A stretch of 49,904 nucleotides of DNA from Bacteroidales bacterium. GTDB taxonomy: Bacteria > Bacteroidota > Bacteroidia > Bacteroidales > VadinHA17. The DNA lies in the NCBI GenBank assembly GCA_038245405.1, contig JBBRSO010000006.1, positions 1 to 49,904 of the forward strand, in the 5' to 3' direction. Position 1 is the first letter of the stretch, and every line of letters begins with the position of its first letter. The notes under the pieces are model-generated. The model saw only the letters and a list, made by a program, of their open reading frames with translations, had not been told where the DNA came from and made no database searches. Made by a program: the position numbers and the translations under genes. Below are positions 8,579 to 49,791 of the stretch, piece after piece.

Positions 8579-8707
8579 ACCCCCTGCCCCCTAAAGGGGG
8601 TTATGATTCTGTAATAATCTTAAGCTGTCTTGTAAATAACGGCCATAAGGCTTATCAAATTTACGAGATACAAATCTTCTTAAAGCCCCCTTTAGGGGGT
8701 TGGGGGC
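8579..8707. repeat. Inverted doublet of REP-like C-tract/hairpin repeats (copy A)
   Basis: ACCCCCTGCCCCCTAAAGGGGGT (8579-8601) and GCCCCCTTTAGGGGGTTGGGGGC (8685-8707; revcomp GCCCCCAACCCCCTAAAGGGGGC), 83-nt spacer, between convergent dnaB and DUF5686 genes. Confidence 0.9.
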
Positions 8708-36166: not shown

Positions 36167-37014
36167 TGGAAACCAGTATTTTTCAATACGATTTTATTTT
36201 AAAGGGTCTCCTCGGAGCAATATTTGCAAGCATAACAGCAGGTCTGGCAGGAACGTACGTTGTGTCTAAGCGCATGGTATTTTTAAGCGGAGGAATTACG
36301 CATGCATCATTTGGCGGGATTGGAATAGGTTATTTCCTGGGTATAAATCCTGTTATCGGCGCCGCGGTTTTCGGTATCCTTTCGGCTCTCGGAGTGGAAT
36401 ATCTCTCTGTAAAACAAAGAATACGGGAAGATTCAGCGATTGGGATCCTATGGGCCTTTGGAATGGCAATAGGAATAATCTTTATTTATCTTACTCCCGG
36501 ATATACACCGAATCTGATGAGCTACCTTTTCGGAAGTATCCTCACTGTTTCAGAGGCCGATATTATTGCTCTGGGGGCAATGTCGGTAATCCTGATATTA
36601 TATTTCGGCATATTCTACCGTACAATCTTATATATCTCATTTGATGAGGTGTTTGCAAGGACATATTCATCATATGTTGATGTATTTAAATATATTACAA
36701 CATCGCTGATAGCTCTTACAATAGTATTGAATATAAGAATGGCAGGTGTGATACTGGTTATCTCTCTGCTGACCATTCCACCTAATATTGCGATGTTATT
36801 TACACGTGTCTATTTTAAAATTGTACTTTGGTCGGTAATTGCCGGATTTGCAGGTACAGCAACAGGCTATATTATTTCATATTATGCTGGTATCCCGGTT
36901 GGTGCAACGATAATTTTTACACTTGTGATTATCTGGGTGGCAGTTAAGCTGGGGACCTTATTATTTTCTAAATTATTAAAGAAATATACCCCCAACCCCC
37001 TAAAGGGGGCTTAA
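36166..37014 (+). CDS. znuB: Zn/Mn ABC transporter permease
   Basis: GITHASFGG, REDSAIGILW, SYLFGSIL; GTG start overlaps the znuC stop. The last residues (TPNPLKGA) are encoded by a repeat. Confidence 0.88.
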   Translation: METSIFQYDFILKGLLGAIFASITAGLAGTYVVSKRMVFLSGGITHASFGGIGIGYFLGINPVIGAAVFGILSALGVEYLSVKQRIREDSAIGILWAFGMAIGIIFIYLTPGYTPNLMSYLFGSILTVSEADIIALGAMSVILILYFGIFYRTILYISFDEVFARTYSSYVDVFKYITTSLIALTIVLNIRMAGVILVISLLTIPPNIAMLFTRVYFKIVLWSVIAGFAGTATGYIISYYAGIPVGATIIFTLVIIWVAVKLGTLLFSKLLKKYTPNPLKGA

Positions 37015-37073
37015 TCCCTGTTGAAGATTTGTTCAGGCCTGGGTGTCTGAACCCCCTTTAGGGGGCAGGGGGT
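36988..37073. repeat. Inverted doublet of REP-like C-tract/hairpin repeats (copy B)
   Basis: ACCCCCAACCCCCTAAAGGGGGC (36988-37010) and ACCCCCTTTAGGGGGCAGGGGGT (37051-37073), 40-nt spacer. Same two arms as copy A, in opposite orientation. Confidence 0.9.
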
Positions 37074-45807: not shown

Positions 45808-46782
45808 ATGAATGACAAAGCTAGAGTGAAAGAAGATTCAATCTACGATTTATTAGTAGTAACCGGCCCGACAGCATCCGGGAAGACAGCTCTTGCTGCT
45901 GCTATTGCTTATAAATTATGCGGAGAGATCATCAGCGCTGACTCACGGCAGGTTTATAAAGGCATGAATCTTGGTACAGGTAAGGATTACGACGATTATA
46001 CAGTGAATGGCGTTAATATCCCATACCATTTGATCGATATCTCAGAACCCGGATATAAATACAACGTCTTTGAATATCAGCGCGACTTTAACAATGTATA
46101 TACTGATCTGAAGAAAAGGATGGTGTTCCCGATAGTATGTGGCGGGTCGGGAATGTATGCCGACAGTATTATAACAGGTTATAAGATGTTCGAAGTGCCA
46201 CCCGATAGCGGGCTGAGGATTGAACTGGAGAAAAAATCAATGGAGGAACTGCAGGGCATTTTGTCAACTTTTAAAAACCTTCATAACAGCACCGATATTG
46301 ATTCAAGAAAAAGAGTAATAAGAGCAATAGAAATAGAACACTCACGCACTAAAAAGACGAAACAGGGAAATGGCTTTCCGAAAATCAGAGCTCTTCTTAT
46401 TGGTGTAATGTTTGACAGGGATTCCAGAAGAAAAAGAATATCGGAGCGACTCAGACAACGTCTCGATGCCGGGATGGTTGATGAGGTGAAACGGTTGCTC
46501 GACGAGGGAGTCAGTTCTGAAACATTGATGTATTATGGACTGGAATATAAATATATAACATTATTTCTGGCTGGGTTAATATCTTATGTTGAAATGGTGA
46601 AAGATCTGGAGATTGCCATTCATCAGTTTGCCAAACGGCAAATGACCTGGTTCAGGGGAATGGAACGAAAAGGTATTAAGATCAATTGGATTGACGGTGA
46701 TCTGCCTATTGAAGAAAAGGTTGAGAAAGTGATGGGTTTATTGCTGCCTGCCAACCCCCCAGCCCCCCATCTGGTGGGCTAA
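45808..46782 (+). CDS. miaA: tRNA dimethylallyltransferase
   Basis: GPTASGKT, ISADSRQVY, GTGK, CGGSGMY, RVIRAIEI, FAKRQMTWFR. The C-terminal ANPPAPHLVG appears repeat-derived. Confidence 0.92.
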   Translation: MNDKARVKEDSIYDLLVVTGPTASGKTALAAAIAYKLCGEIISADSRQVYKGMNLGTGKDYDDYTVNGVNIPYHLIDISEPGYKYNVFEYQRDFNNVYTDLKKRMVFPIVCGGSGMYADSIITGYKMFEVPPDSGLRIELEKKSMEELQGILSTFKNLHNSTDIDSRKRVIRAIEIEHSRTKKTKQGNGFPKIRALLIGVMFDRDSRRKRISERLRQRLDAGMVDEVKRLLDEGVSSETLMYYGLEYKYITLFLAGLISYVEMVKDLEIAIHQFAKRQMTWFRGMERKGIKINWIDGDLPIEEKVEKVMGLLLPANPPAPHLVG

Positions 46783-46830
46783 AAAGTCCAGGCAACTCAT
46801 AAAGTCCCCCTATATTTGAGGATTTAGGGC
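46754..46830. repeat. Degenerate inverted doublet of C-tract/hairpin repeats (copy C)
   Basis: ACCCCCCAGCCCCCCATCTGGTGGGCTAA (46754-46782) facing AAGTCCCCCTATATTTGAGGATTTAGGGC (46802-46830). Confidence 0.55.
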
Positions 46831-46949
46831 ATAGCCGTCAAGCTAATACCAGTTATATGTCTGATAATAAGAATGCTAAGTAAATAAAATTTCTCCTCCT
46901 TTCGAAGGACTTCGCTTTATCCTTATTTTTTCCTCTTAGCTTTTTTTAT

Positions 46950-47571
46950 ACTCACCCCCAACCCCCTCTCTACTTCGTAAAGAGGGGGCAAGTTACAGAT
47001 ATGCTGATTATTAAGCAATGTTCAAGAGGGAAATAATTCAGGCGGATATCTTCAGTAATTCTGTTTACTTAATTGACTTTAAGTATGTTTCTATTTTTGT
47101 CAAAACAGCAGGAATATCTAAAAGCTCTTCATTATTAATTCTTAATACATGAAGTCCCAGATTCAACATTTCCGATTCTCTGTATTGATCGTACTGTACA
47201 TTGGCTTGATGAATTGGTCCATCGAGCTCAAGAACTGTTTTTTTAAGATCACAATAAAAATCAGCTACAAAATATTTAGAGCCAGAACCATTAGGGTTAT
47301 AAACGATAGGGTGCTGACGAAGAAATTTATAACCTTCAAGTCTTCTGTTTCTTAGTTCTTCCCATAAAACAGTCTCAGAAGGAGTCATATTCTTTCTCAA
47401 TAGTCTGGCTCTTTTTTTGACAACTTTAAAATCAAGATGTTTTGATCTTAACATAAGAGGATGTTTAGATAAAGATACAAATTTCTTTAAAAAATATTAT
47501 TCTAGTTATATCTGAATTTGTATTACATGGTCACCCCTCTTTGCGCTAGCAGAGAGGGGATGGGGGTGAGT
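46950..47571. mobile_element. Putative 622-bp element: DUF559 endonuclease gene between ~40-bp inverted hairpin repeats
   Basis: Left arm ACTCACCCCCAACCCCCTCTCTACTTCGTAAAGAGGGGGC (46950-46989). Right arm (47532-47571) revcomp ACTCACCCCCATCCCCTCTCTGCTAGCGCAAAGAGGGGTG. The repeats are seen directly; mobility is inferred. Confidence 0.55.
47065..47454 (-). CDS. DUF559 / Vsr-like endonuclease domain protein
   Basis: ARLLRKNMTPSETVLWEELR, GYKFLRQHPI, ADFYC, LELDGPIH, D..R...L..GLHVLRINN; the putative catalytic D/E/H residues are intact. Confidence 0.9.
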   Translation of the reverse strand: MLRSKHLDFKVVKKRARLLRKNMTPSETVLWEELRNRRLEGYKFLRQHPIVYNPNGSGSKYFVADFYCDLKKTVLELDGPIHQANVQYDQYRESEMLNLGLHVLRINNEELLDIPAVLTKIETYLKSIK

Positions 47572-47642
47572 TTGTAAGGCTAAAGAAAATTCCCGCTCAA
47601 TAAGATGTGTATAAAGGGTAGTTCAAAAAAAGGAGGGGAAAG

Positions 47643-47680
47643 TTATCCTTAGAGATTCTGGTAAAAATCTCTAAGGATAA
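47643..47680 (-). terminator. 15-bp perfect hairpin downstream of the S9 peptidase gene
   Basis: TTATCCTTAGAGATT-CTGGTAAA-AATCTCTAAGGATAA; a pyrimidine/T-rich tail follows on the - strand. Confidence 0.6.
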
Positions 47681-47733
47681 TGTTATTAGGGAGTTCCCAG
47701 GCAAACAAACCCAGGTCAGATCCCTTACTATAT

Positions 47734-49791
47734 CTATTTAAGATAAGTATCCAGCCATTCAAAGAATTCACGCTGCCAGATAACTGAATTCTGCGGTTTT
47801 GTCACCCAGTGATATTCATCCTCAAAAAACAGTAATCTGCTGGGAATACCTTGCAGCTGTGCTGCATTAAATGCTTCCAGACTTTGTGTGTAAGGTATTC
47901 TGAAGTCATTCTGACCGGTAATTATGAGTATAGGCGTTTTCCATTTATCTACCATAAGATGAGGCGAGAATTTATAACTCGGCAGATTCTTCCAGTATGG
48001 ACCACCGTAGTCTTTGTTTGGAAACCATACTTCCTCGGTACTACCATATTCACTTACAAAATTGAAAACACCGCAATGTGAAATAAATACCTTGAACCTG
48101 CCATTATGAATACCTTCAAGATAGAAAATTGAAAATCCTCCATAGCTGGCTCCCACTGCACCCATTTTTTGTGCATCAACAAATGATTCTTTTGCCATTG
48201 AATCTGTAGCGTCAAGATAATCCTGCATATTTTTTCCACCGTAGTCACCCGAGATCTCTTCTTTCCATTCCTGACCGAATCCGGATACACCCCGGCGGTT
48301 AGGGGCAAAAACAATATAACCTTTTGCAGCTATCATCTGCATATTCCAACGGTACGACCAGAACTGATCAAGAGCTGATTGCGGGCCTCCTTCACAGAAC
48401 AGGAGGGCTGGATATTTTTTAGATTGATCAAAGCCGGGAGGATAAATCACCCACATATGGAGATCTTTCTTATCTTTTGTCTTGATATATTTTTCCTCAA
48501 CCTTCCCCATTCTAATATTATCGTAGATTGGTTTATTAATTGATGTAATCTGATTGAGTGACCCGGTTTTTATATCTACGATTGTAAGTTCAGGTGCCAT
48601 CGACATTGAGAGGATCTCTGAGAGGAGAACCCCTGACTTGATTGTGAACGGTCCTAAATTATGAACCCCGGTAGTTAATGGGGTTACTGCTTTTCCGCTG
48701 ATGTCTGTTTTGAAGATCTGGGAAGTGCCCAGGTGTGAGCAGGCAAAATAGATTGTTGAATCTCCGTTCCAGGTTATATTTGAAACATCAAAACTCCAGT
48801 CTTTTGTGATCCACGATCTCTTACCTTCATTTATATTGTAAACAAACAGCCTGTCGAGGTCTGCCTCATAGCCATCTTTTTCCATACTCTGATAGGCGAT
48901 CATTGAACCATCGGGGGAGAAGACCGGATACCTGTCATAGCCTTTATTACCCTCAGAAATATTAACTTCTTTGCCGGTTTCAATATTATAAAGATATACA
49001 TCTGAGTTTGTGCTCACTGCATCCTCTTTACCAAATAGCCTTTTTGATGTATAGGCGATATTTTTCCCATCAGGGCTCCAGGTTATTTCTGTTTCATCAA
49101 AGTAAGGTGCTGATGGCGTTTCAAATCGTTGTCCTTCCATAATGTCTTTTGCCTCCGAAACGGTGTTCCCGTTCAGCCGGGCTACAAACAGATGGCTGTA
49201 TGAATAATCGCTCCAGTAATTCCAATGACGGTACATCAGGTCGTTAATGATTCTGACGTGTGCCTTTGGCAGGTTATGTTTCTCATTTGCAGTCTGATCA
49301 AGTTTAACCCTTTTTGTAAAGTATATGTTTTTTGTGTCAGGGGAAATACTGAAGTATTCAAATTCGCCGATGCCGGTTATTTCTTTCAGGGTAGAGCCAT
49401 CGGCGTTCATTGTAAAAAGCTTCCCCCCGTTGACAAATGCGAATGATTTACCATCGTTGAGCCATTGTGGAGAGCTACCTCCATCGGTAGTTAGTTGAGC
49501 AGGATTTCCTGACGAAGTGGTAGTTTTAAAAATGTTTGTTCTTCTGGCCTCAGTCTGAAGATCAATGTCGGTGACAGTGTAAAGGGCAGTGGATCCGTCT
49601 GGAGAGAGAGAAAATGATCCCAGTCTTCCGAATTTCCACATTATTTCTGGAGTCATAACGCCACCTGTTTTTTCTTCGGAGGTAAGCTGGTTGTCAAATT
49701 GTTTCACGGCTTCTTTGGGCGCGACGGTCTTCTGCTGGCATGATCCGAAGATCAGTGCGGACAGAATGATTGGCAAAAGATATTTTTTCAT
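47734..49791 (-). CDS. S9 family peptidase (dipeptidyl-peptidase 5-like lipoprotein)
   Basis: Lipobox FGSC; beta-propeller (SPDG repeats), GASYGG nucleophile, NDFRIP Asp, DEYHWV His. Confidence 0.92.
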   Translation of the reverse strand: MKKYLLPIILSALIFGSCQQKTVAPKEAVKQFDNQLTSEEKTGGVMTPEIMWKFGRLGSFSLSPDGSTALYTVTDIDLQTEARRTNIFKTTTSSGNPAQLTTDGGSSPQWLNDGKSFAFVNGGKLFTMNADGSTLKEITGIGEFEYFSISPDTKNIYFTKRVKLDQTANEKHNLPKAHVRIINDLMYRHWNYWSDYSYSHLFVARLNGNTVSEAKDIMEGQRFETPSAPYFDETEITWSPDGKNIAYTSKRLFGKEDAVSTNSDVYLYNIETGKEVNISEGNKGYDRYPVFSPDGSMIAYQSMEKDGYEADLDRLFVYNINEGKRSWITKDWSFDVSNITWNGDSTIYFACSHLGTSQIFKTDISGKAVTPLTTGVHNLGPFTIKSGVLLSEILSMSMAPELTIVDIKTGSLNQITSINKPIYDNIRMGKVEEKYIKTKDKKDLHMWVIYPPGFDQSKKYPALLFCEGGPQSALDQFWSYRWNMQMIAAKGYIVFAPNRRGVSGFGQEWKEEISGDYGGKNMQDYLDATDSMAKESFVDAQKMGAVGASYGGFSIFYLEGIHNGRFKVFISHCGVFNFVSEYGSTEEVWFPNKDYGGPYWKNLPSYKFSPHLMVDKWKTPILIITGQNDFRIPYTQSLEAFNAAQLQGIPSRLLFFEDEYHWVTKPQNSVIWQREFFEWLDTYLK

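Follow-up and report, generated by a model that had tools for sequence, protein, structure and literature searches.

A nuclease gene of the DUF559 family and the two inverted, structure-forming arms that enclose it make up a unit that recurs across related bacteria, and this cassette has the look of selfish DNA of a type not yet described. The copy described here lies between miaA and an S9 peptidase gene in a stretch of 49,904 nucleotides from a Bacteroidales bacterium, which we call the window. Arm type and nuclease co-vary, the arm hairpin is conserved, the corresponding site is empty in relatives, and deletion derivatives of the cassette exist. We see about an even chance that the gene and its arms form one selfish unit with a homing-endonuclease-like drive on a dispersed palindromic repeat.

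An intact DUF559 gene between two hairpin arms

The initial annotation had described an intact DUF559 gene between two inverted arms of about 40 bp, which was confirmed by the Pfam match and by alignment of the arms (Table 1). The product matches the DUF559 profile PF04480 with an E value of 6.3e-26 and 90.8 bits, where the cut-off is 20.6, covers positions 3-108 of the 109 of the profile, and retains 11 of the 11 invariant columns of a 43-protein DUF559 alignment, including D65, E76, H82 and D89. With an E limit of 0.01, DUF559 was the sole family that Pfam returned: the protein has no match to the Vsr profile PF03852 and no second Pfam domain. PDB 3hrl is similar to it (E 1.7e-11) in an alignment that spans the D..E.DG..H stretch, and 3r3p, the catalytic domain of I-Bth0305I, gives a weak match (E 0.034, 17.6 bits). 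The gene is intergenic, with miaA and the S9 peptidase gene as neighbours and no methyltransferase or defence gene beside it. It had been called single, which holds within the window but not in the genome, where we count 15 DUF559-derived loci. In the upstream spacer, the letters TATCTTTA at 47470-47477 on the minus strand are the putative -7 promoter element of the initial annotation.

The protein of the window's DUF559 lineage is under purifying selection. Against the nine lineage relatives with computable dS, dN/dS of the window gene ranged from 0.08 to 0.25, and the unsaturated pair L109/L110 gave 0.24. The window copy and a second copy of the gene in the same genome, on contig C147, gave 0.45 over 70 codons.

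Table 1. Features of the window, in order of position.
Feature	Coordinates	Strand	Basis
5-C doublet without a gene, TG arm plus AA arm	8579..8707		Folds, z -5.8
5-C doublet without a gene, AA arm plus TG arm	36988..37073		Folds, z -4.3
miaA (IPP transferase)	45808..46782	+	Pfam IPPT, E 6.8e-54
Decayed gene-less 6-C doublet, arms 46752-46780 and 46801-46829	46752..46829		Sequence; z 0.2, folding no better than shuffles
Left end of IS4/IS186-like non-autonomous element E1 (subtype iii), then one half, decayed, of the inner hairpin (46893-46908)	46830..46908	+	End CATAGCCGTCAA
Left arm of carrier E2 (second inverted-repeat element), decayed	46909..46949	+	Better kept at C147, C34, C40, C64
Cassette arm, gene-downstream side: ACTCA, C-run, AA, then C5TCTCT / AGAGG5 hairpin	46950..46989	+	Hairpin z -2.7
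DUF559 (Vsr-like, PD-(D/E)XK fold) nuclease gene, intact, 129 aa	47065..47454	-	ORF and Pfam PF04480
Upstream spacer of the DUF559 gene	47455..47530	-	Sequence; part from 47481 onward kept in gene-less derivative
Cassette arm, gene-upstream side; inverted copy of 46950-46989	47531..47571	-	Hairpin z -3.0
Right arm of carrier E2	47572..47622	-	13-18 genome copies; partner of 46909-46949
Other half of E1 inner hairpin and short E1 remnant	47623..47651		Comparison with C42, C56, C142
Perfect 15-bp inverted repeat, terminator-like, downstream of the peptidase gene	47643..47680		Inverted-repeat listing (I4)
S9 family peptidase, convergent with miaA	47734..49791	-	Pfam Peptidase_S9, E 1e-50

The left and right cassette arms align over 38 nt with a score of 44; shifted controls of the same geometry at other loci had a median of 19. 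ACTCACCCCCA occurs exactly at two sites of the window, 46950 (+) and 47571 (-), with 0.40 expected, and at least two occurrences were seen in 6 of 100 shuffled windows. When up to one mismatch was allowed, CCCCCANCCCC matched the window 10 times, where 1.17 matches are expected; 0 of 100 shuffles reached 10. The outer sequence of the left arm is that of the doublet arm at 36988-37011, and the earlier observation that these two arms share it was thus borne out. Both strands fold, with hairpin z values for the left and right arms of -2.7 and -3.0 on the C-rich strand and -3.3 and -3.0 on the G-rich strand. Within the window lineage, the hairpin is 96.4% paired, compared with 46-68% when the partners are slid; both-sided changes occur at five pairs, and one arm-hairpin pair is AU in 18 sequences and GC in 17. 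Read on the G-rich strand, the cassette arms run C5TCTT.-loop-AGAGAG5-TT-G5 and the 5-C and 6-C arms C5-N4-G5-N2-G5, so that they have the three consecutive blocks from which a pyrimidine-purine-purine fold-back could form. Compared with Rfam at an E limit of 1, the stretch 46600-47800 gave four matches, all far under their gathering scores, and so no known RNA family.

No direct repeat borders the cassette at 46950 or 47571 as a target duplication of its own, and the empty site cannot be read at the window cassette because of its nested context. The statement of the initial annotation that no transposase, integrase or target duplication is visible therefore stands for the cassette, which has none inside and no bordering direct repeat, but an IS4-family transposase is present elsewhere in the genome.

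Arm type follows the nuclease clade

Two of the checks proposed with the initial annotation, for enrichment of flanking inverted repeats at DUF559 genes and for co-variation of nuclease and repeat, came out positive. Around the 30 best DUF559 loci of the genus, the best flanking inverted repeat had a median score of 36.5 versus 19 in shifted controls. A strict three-block pattern formed an inward pair at 12 of these 30 loci and had at least one match at 19, versus a match in 5 of 30 distant control stretches. At the level of the phylum, the flanking inverted repeats of 14 small DUF559 ORFs had a median score of 37. DUF559 is present in 51 of the 61 genus genomes, with 0 to 13 copies per genome, and in 105 of 201 phylum genomes.

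Arm types track the DUF559 clades in the genus. The T4 and T2 clades (both SH-aLRT 99) each have their own arm type at 4 of 4 loci, and on the DUF559 tree arm type changes state 7 times over 35 labelled rows with 5 states. The lineage of the window gene was found at 21 places, at 51% identity or more, in 18 other genomes of the genus. Its ACTCACCCCC arm was present at 19 of the 19 lineage loci examined, and on both sides at 13. Co-variation of arms and nuclease would also be expected where the two are simply co-inherited.

Nested repeats and empty sites at the miaA locus

The repeats extend beyond the 46950-47571 interval: between 46744 and about 47680 the gap is made up entirely of repeats with 4-18 genome copies each. 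The final 12 codons and the stop codon of miaA are themselves repeat-derived (the repeat starts at about 46747), and alignments with the MiaA proteins of relatives mostly end at residue 312. The doublet at 46752-46829 has the arm pair of the genome's other 6-C doublets and of the arms of the T3 DUF559 clade. The cassette is nested within two further inverted-repeat elements, E2 lying inside the IS4/IS186-like E1. The CATAGCCGTCAA end is found on many contigs, each time followed by the same inner sequence, and resembles both the ends of IS186 and the end of C317, a contig with an IS4-family transposase; a right E1 end was looked for in the window and is absent. The outer layers E1 and E2 are common to the window copy and the C147 copy. 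Chance and an assembly artefact were both rejected, since overlapping contigs of run X1 lead from miaA to the left arm, through the cassette, and from the right repeats to the peptidase gene.

Empty sites, which the initial annotation had suggested looking for between miaA and the peptidase gene in relatives, were found. Synteny of the two genes is retained at 17 of 19 relatives' loci, and in all 17 the gap measures 3-234 bp and holds no DUF559. These gaps gather assorted small repeats, such as a gene-less doublet of the window type in genome G001 and three 6-C repeats in G014.

Cassette locations differ between species. Among the 19 lineage loci, flanking genes are common only within L108/L113/L115 and within L116/L117. 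DUF559 also occurs inside other genes: in 8 of the 8 long open frames scanned, the match lies in frame within a host gene (metH twice, leuS, hsdR, hsdM and others), and in 5 of the 8 host domains flank it on both sides.

Gene-less doublets and deletion derivatives

The three-block motif has 61 matches in the genome versus 1 for the reversed control. Inward-facing arm pairs number 34, of which 27 are 69-146 bp long, mostly 69-86 bp, and gene-less doublets outnumber the gene-bearing copies with the same arms. Three gene-less inward doublets had been proposed for the window; those at 8579-8707 and 36988-37073 do fold as long hairpins, but the one at 46752-46829 is decayed. The spacers of the doublets have diverged, and there is therefore no sign of recent doublet mobilisation in trans.

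Intermediate forms were also found. A 5-C doublet on contig C142 retains a C-terminal fragment of DUF559. Contigs from three other studies hold an internally deleted form of the window cassette in which 47014 is joined to 47481, a form that is not assignable to the window locus because these contigs are short. Copies of the B lineage show at least 5 distinct internal deletions with the ends retained, and the copies at C1 and C78 have an identical internal deletion at both loci.

Carriers, RAYT transposases and host function as alternatives

It is possible, though we think it unlikely, that DUF559 has no role in movement: the gene and its hairpins would ride transposase-less cassettes (MICs) that a DDE transposase moves in trans, C-run/G-run hairpins being preferred targets of IS4/IS186-like elements and MITEs. 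The outer layers at the window locus speak for such passive carriage. E1 ends (CATAGCCGTCAAC.TAAG) resemble the IS186 ends from E. coli K-12, and the IS4-family transposase of C317 (NF033592, 235 bits; cut-off 115) goes with an end, CATAGCCGTCAGGTTAAGG, that matches them; the published target of IS186 is GGGG(N6/N7)CCCC (PMC5009759). E1 copies lie inside C-run/G-run hairpins, direct repeats of about 10 bp accompany them at C44, C18 and C3 (not at C12, C140 and C120), mini-E1 copies of 133 bp exist in the genome, and both cassette lineages of the window genome sit inside carriers bounded by inverted repeats. Carriers take varied cargo, since E2 at C42 bears a RAYT with its REPs. The identical deletion at C1 and C78 also fits. 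With IS-like carriers and the same layers at C147, copy number within the genome needs no nuclease; with the window cassette inside E2 and E1 and an IS4 transposase in the genome, the window copy may have been brought to the gap between miaA and the peptidase gene as a passenger of these carriers. What passive carriage leaves unexplained are the constant, lineage-specific arms of DUF559, present inside or outside carriers, the compensatory changes in the hairpin, the purifying selection and the many doublets without IS ends. The ACTCACCCCC arms have no likeness to the ends of IS186 or C317. Moreover, E1-type ends are rare: in all scanned genus and phylum DUF559 loci they occur at four, namely L024, L046, L105 (the window's own) and L106, and among the B-clade (T4) loci of other genomes (L032, L036, L042 and L046) only at L046.

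REP/REPIN families are mobilised by HUH tyrosine transposases (RAYT), whose genes are flanked by their own REPs. The arms and doublets might then be REPs and REPINs moved in trans by such Y1 transposases, with DUF559 merely lying between two of them, but we give this very little credence. Y1 genes do occur in 57 of the 61 genus genomes and in all 42 repeat-rich ones, and the outer layers E1 and E2 also enclose a RAYT pseudogene, at C42. However, the three-block motif was found in the flanks of 0 of the 12 best RAYT loci of the genus, which carry other REPs, and other sequences (their own REPs) directly adjoin the gene at the window genome's three RAYT loci; at C33 and C42 these are a GGCTCTGAAAGAGCC palindrome and an AACCCC.GG hairpin, a small family with 13 and 6 hits. 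Over these loci, RAYT is thus excluded as the gene that the repeats flank. The related suggestion that a nuclease occupies the RAYT position holds in so far as DUF559 is flanked by the repeats and RAYT is not, but IS-like carriers could explain the copy number. A comparison of repeat counts with both enzymes had been proposed as well. Over the 61 genus genomes, repeat count tracks Y1 (rho 0.34) less than DUF559 (rho 0.50), but this correlation is moderate and non-discriminating because DUF559 and RAYT track the repeats and also each other (rho 0.44), and the genomes, being related, are not independent data points. Four genomes with at least 10 repeats lack a DUF559 match (98 in G006, 42 in G032, 20 in G044 and 14 in G013). 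We also find it improbable that DUF559 is a host gene, a domesticated repair or defence nuclease, whose hairpins serve expression (as terminators or in mRNA stability) or whose surroundings simply collect repeats that pile up in gaps. The strong purifying selection on the protein, its wide occurrence in the genus and phylum and the small repeats in the relatives' miaA/peptidase gaps would agree with a host function; the variable copy number, the locations that change with the species, the in-frame copies within unrelated host genes, the decayed and internally deleted copies, the two-sided, inverted and clade-specific arms, and a window gene with no methyltransferase or defence neighbour argue against it.

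A proposed nuclease-driven selfish unit

If the cassette is a selfish unit with a homing-like drive, the DUF559 protein would recognise its own lineage's arms in folded or paired form and cut there, and gene-less doublets with such arms would be among its targets. Through recombination or gap repair, the host would copy the gene-bearing element into the broken copy, and incomplete repair would give rise to internally deleted and gene-less derivatives. Such a drive would be aimed at a dispersed palindromic repeat, not at one gene. We infer the cutting of the arms by the nuclease, the copying that this cutting would drive and the mobilisation of doublets in trans. A nuclease alone is unable to join DNA, so spread to repeat-less sites is left unexplained. 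All together, the interpretation in the initial annotation is borne out in part: the recurring unit, the arm types, the empty site, the gene-less and deleted forms and the exclusion of RAYT speak for it, whereas the moderate correlation, the repeat-rich genomes without a DUF559 match and the IS-like carriers weaken it. If the nuclease does drive copying, the cassette would be a selfish element that needs no transposase, intron or intein, and its easily varied recognition site would make it a potential tool.

A wider proposal, to which we lean less than to its opposite, is that BoxC/PIT-type repeats, as a class of C-run/G-run hairpins spread across all bacteria, have their missing enzymes in the DUF559 proteins and form with them a nuclease-only mobile element whose lineages and arms co-evolve. 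The nuclease would cut folded arms in a structure-specific way, and host repair of these cuts would bring the cassette into doublets and also, in frame, into essential genes. To our knowledge, no function has been assigned to the very large DUF559 family, and BoxC/PIT-type repeats have been without an explanation since the 1990s. If the proposal is true, a large family would gain a role, and it would become clear how these repeats arose and why genome instability has been reported in their vicinity. The lineage-specific pairing of DUF559 with its repeats, and the evident signs of movement, bring both puzzles within reach of tests that need a single enzyme and a handful of oligonucleotides.

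Comparison with known systems

BoxC/PIT/TM repeats have the same three-block layout on the G-rich strand (C-block, loop, G-block, short loop, G-block) and, like the arms here, are intergenic, multi-copy and often paired (PMC4666352). No partner enzyme of triplex-motif repeats is known. The authors of that study report that transposase or integrase remnants never turned up close to them; the words endonuclease and ycjD are absent from the paper (Holder et al. 2015, PMC4666352). The block sequences differ, being C5/G5 or C5TCTCT here and CCCTCNCCC in BoxC/TMECO, and the strict TMECO consensus has 0 matches in the window genome, even for its first two blocks alone. About 165 bp downstream of ycjD, the DUF559 gene of E. 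coli K-12, lies a single match to TMECO blocks one and two. The cassette arms resemble BoxC/PIT repeats in architecture only. In the literature on DUF559, on ycjD/Vsr-like nucleases, on selfish inverted repeats with Vsr or homing endonucleases and on triplex repeats, as judged by titles, abstracts and passages, we found no description of a DUF559-repeat association or of mobility.

REP/REPIN elements, like the arms, are short hairpins set as inverted doublets of fixed size and dispersed in intergenic gaps; in both systems an inverted pair flanks a small gene, and gene-less copies are far commoner. The enzyme differs, however, a HUH tyrosine transposase in REP/REPIN-RAYT and a PD-(D/E)XK/Vsr-fold nuclease here, and the cassettes differ further from REPs in the extra outer C-run of their arms and in their in-frame occurrence inside genes. 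Rickettsia palindromic elements are palindromic selfish repeats that lie in frame in protein-coding genes and are translated along with them; we know of no gene of their own. IS186 and MITEs/MICs resemble the outer layer E1 (ends, hairpin site, repeats of about 10 bp, mini copies) and not the cassette arms, and the nesting suggests that hairpins of this kind serve IS186-like elements as landing sites. The sequence of the hairpins here is CCCC..GGGG, that of the published IS186 target GGGG(N6/7)CCCC (PMC5009759).

VSR, DUF559 and 3r3p have been grouped together as a catalytic fold family (PMC3424549). I-Bth0305I is a proven homing endonuclease of the Vsr fold, which as a dimer cuts a pseudo-palindromic target (PMC3239194), and endonucleases of this type are selfish genes, as the cassette would be, of the same catalytic fold family, with sequence similarity that is marginal (E 0.034). 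I-Bth0305I has a DNA-binding region at its N-terminus and lies in a group I intron of a single gene (PMC3239194), whereas the 129-aa window protein consists of the catalytic domain only and comes with no intron or intein, and its target would be a dispersed repeat.

The DUF559 cassette and its repeat family

The initial annotation described an intact DUF559 gene enclosed by two inverted hairpin arms (together, the cassette). This was confirmed: the window protein matched Pfam DUF559 (E 6.3e-26) and the solved DUF559 structure 3hrl (E 1.7e-11), both arms begin with ACTCACCCCCA, found just twice in the window (0.40 expected), and the hairpin that follows in each arm folds better than shuffled sequence (z about -3). 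3r3p, the catalytic domain of the homing endonuclease I-Bth0305I, matched the protein weakly (E 0.034). The genome (G000), of which the window is contig C6, comprises 3.7 Mb in 323 contigs, with 39% G+C.

Features of the cassette locus and related loci (C, contigs of G000; L, loci; 5-C and 6-C, arm families by C-run length)
Feature	Position	Strand	Remarks
miaA	45808-46782	+	Pfam IPPT
S9 peptidase gene	47734-49791	minus	convergent with miaA
DUF559 gene, 129 aa, intact	47065-47454	minus	sole gene between miaA and the S9 peptidase gene
Cassette arms, inverted	46950-46989 and 47531-47571		flank the DUF559 gene on either side
E2 arms	46909-46949 and 47572-47622		enclose the window's cassette
E1 left end	46830		inner hairpin of E1 split by E2
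Good 5-C doublet	8579-8707		window
Good 5-C doublet	36988-37073		window
Decayed 6-C doublet	46752-46829		window; also source of miaA's last codons
Window's DUF559 lineage, second location	C147
DUF559 gene, intact	C119		between 6-C arms
C-terminal DUF559 fragment	C142		still enclosed by a 5-C doublet
B-lineage DUF559, multi-copy	G000		long flanks rich in hairpins
In-frame DUF559 insertions	L076, L077, L079, L084, L085, L086, L100, L101		other phylum genomes

The arm design, an outer C-run, at least two bases and then a C-run/G-run hairpin, is strongly over-represented: the core motif occurs 10 times in the window against 1.17 expected, and the three-block motif 61 times in the genome against once for a reversed control. 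The genome holds 34 inward-facing arm pairs, 27 of them doublets of 69-146 bp. Doublets split into a 5-C and a 6-C family; in both, the two arms of a doublet differ consistently and the spacers have diverged. In every 5-C doublet (for example the two in the window and those on C1, C3, C60, C66, C81 and C142), one arm has AA between the C-runs and ends G5-C, and its partner has TG and ends G5-T. This gives the doublet a direction and, on folding, would leave a fixed two-base mismatch. A 6-C repeat also provides the final 12 codons and stop codon of miaA (46747-46782); relatives' MiaA alignments mostly stop at residue 312, immediately ahead of it.

Gene and arms go together across the genus and phylum

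Of 61 genomes of the genus, 51 contained DUF559; the number of matches per genome ranged over 0-13. For the 30 best loci, inverted repeats were scored between the two 300-bp flanks, and the top repeat per locus had a median score of 36.5, compared with a median of 19 and a maximum of 45 for shifted controls, in line with the proposed enrichment of such repeats around DUF559 genes. Under the strict three-block pattern, 12 of these 30 loci showed an inward-facing pair and 19 some match. The suggested co-variation of nuclease and repeat was also found: arm types track protein clades in a maximum-likelihood tree of 43 proteins.

The window's own lineage was found at 21 places at no less than 51% identity (18 other genomes), with dN/dS of 0.08-0.25 and shared flanking genes limited to two small groups of loci. 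All 19 lineage loci fetched carried ACTCACCCCC arms, 13 of them on both sides. An alignment of 38 arms bore out the hairpin: 96.4% of its cells were paired, against 46-68% with partners slid; five pairs showed changes on both sides, and one pair read AU 18 times and GC 17 times.

In the phylum, DUF559 was present in 105 of 201 genomes, and 16 of the 30 best matches lay in long open frames, with inverted arms still flanking (median score 33). Eight of these 16 were scanned for a host gene, and in all eight DUF559 sat in frame within one: metH (two genomes), leuS, hsdR, hsdM, two other restriction-modification enzymes and a DNA methylase. In five of the eight, the insert had host domains on either side. 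The two metH insertions have different arm types, and the two other restriction-modification hosts are MmeI/Type ISP enzymes.

Empty sites and derivatives

Empty miaA-S9 peptidase sites, which the initial annotation had proposed to seek, do exist in relatives. Both genes were found at 17 of 19 relatives' loci, all 17 with a gap of 3-234 bp compared with about 990 bp in the window; none of the 19 loci contained DUF559. The gap of one relative (G001) holds a doublet with the same type of arms but no gene, and that of another (G014) three 6-C repeats, thus the gap is a landing spot.

Within G000, 13 Pfam matches and 15 DUF559-derived loci (tblastn) represent four or more lineages, which differ in their flanks. 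Only the window and C119 genes are intact within a contig, the others being interrupted by contig ends or internally deleted; B-lineage copies have lost many different internal stretches while retaining both ends. In contigs from three other studies, 47014 is joined to 47481 via 18 other letters, a join absent from the run holding the locus as assembled; it is a gene-less derivative of the window's own cassette.

Carriers, RAYTs and the spread of the cassette

Repeated DNA makes up the entire gap between 46744 and about 47680, a point that the initial annotation had missed. Around the cassette lies an inverted-repeat carrier, E2, nested in an outer carrier, E1, whose ends, present on many other contigs too, are similar to IS186 ends read in E. 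coli K-12. Contig C317 (L127:1-1580) encodes an IS4-family transposase and has an IS186-like end matching E1; transposase-less derivatives with this end range from 133-bp minis to about 580 bp. Copies of E1 lie within C-run/G-run hairpins; those at C44, C18 and C3 are accompanied by direct repeats of about 10 bp, and those at C12, C140 and C120 are not. The hairpin repeats thus probably act as landing pads of an IS186-like element. IS186 itself targets GGGG(N6/7)CCCC (PMC5009759). The B-lineage DUF559 gene is found inside E1, and inside E2 either the cassette of the window or a RAYT pseudogene (C42:20790-22020, L072). This pseudogene is frameshifted or truncated, is accompanied by REP hairpins of its own and lies within the same E2 and E1 layers, so the carriers take different cargo. 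Runs of short tandem units, CACCC/CAGCACCC-type or other, border several E1 ends (C12:20760-20810, C99, C288, C78), and the same kinds fill relatives' miaA/peptidase gaps (L002, L012); they look like a further small-repeat class.

Could the carriers be the whole story? The C147 and window copies share their outer layers. Much of the copy number and of the deletion series in this genome may therefore stem from DDE transposition, with the window copy possibly a passenger. However, E1-type ends were found at only one (L046) of four B-clade loci from other genomes and at only four of all DUF559 loci scanned, the window's own included. Y1 transposases occur in 57 of 61 genus genomes, and the initial annotation had named a RAYT with these repeats in its flanks as grounds for refutation. 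The flanks of the 12 best genus RAYT loci contained other REPs and no three-block motif, and at the three RAYT loci of G000 other sequences, not cassette-type arms, adjoin the gene. In the correlation that the initial annotation had proposed, repeat counts followed DUF559 (rho 0.50) but also Y1 (rho 0.34); four repeat-rich genomes had no DUF559 match and all 42 repeat-rich genomes had a Y1 gene, so this comparison does not discriminate.

The best-supported account, to which we give about an even chance, is a selfish nuclease cassette whose gene and arms co-evolve, most likely driven in a homing-like manner. Cuts by the nuclease in arms or doublets that match its type would be repaired by the host, which would thereby copy the cassette in or leave deletion derivatives. 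Internal deletions with kept ends would fit interrupted gap repair; arm cutting and trans-mobilisation of doublets are steps that we infer. There is a precedent within the Vsr fold: a homing endonuclease of this kind works on its pseudo-palindromic target as a dimer (PMC3239194).

Comparison with known repeats

Like BoxC/PIT/TM repeats, the cassette arms have a three-block architecture, but they do not fit the TMECO consensus, which had no match in the G000 genome. Holder et al. (PMC4666352) found no mobility genes near TM repeats. No description of a DUF559/hairpin-arm pairing was found in the literature searched. The DUF559 gene of E. coli K-12, ycjD, adjoins fabI, and downstream of ycjD the first two TMECO blocks are matched once; BoxC was reportedly first described beside fabI, then called envM. 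Between the two genes (L125:2760-2965), a 23-base stretch of the ycjD 3' end recurs about 105 bp downstream, which suggests that part of another DUF559 copy survives next to the BoxC-like motif.
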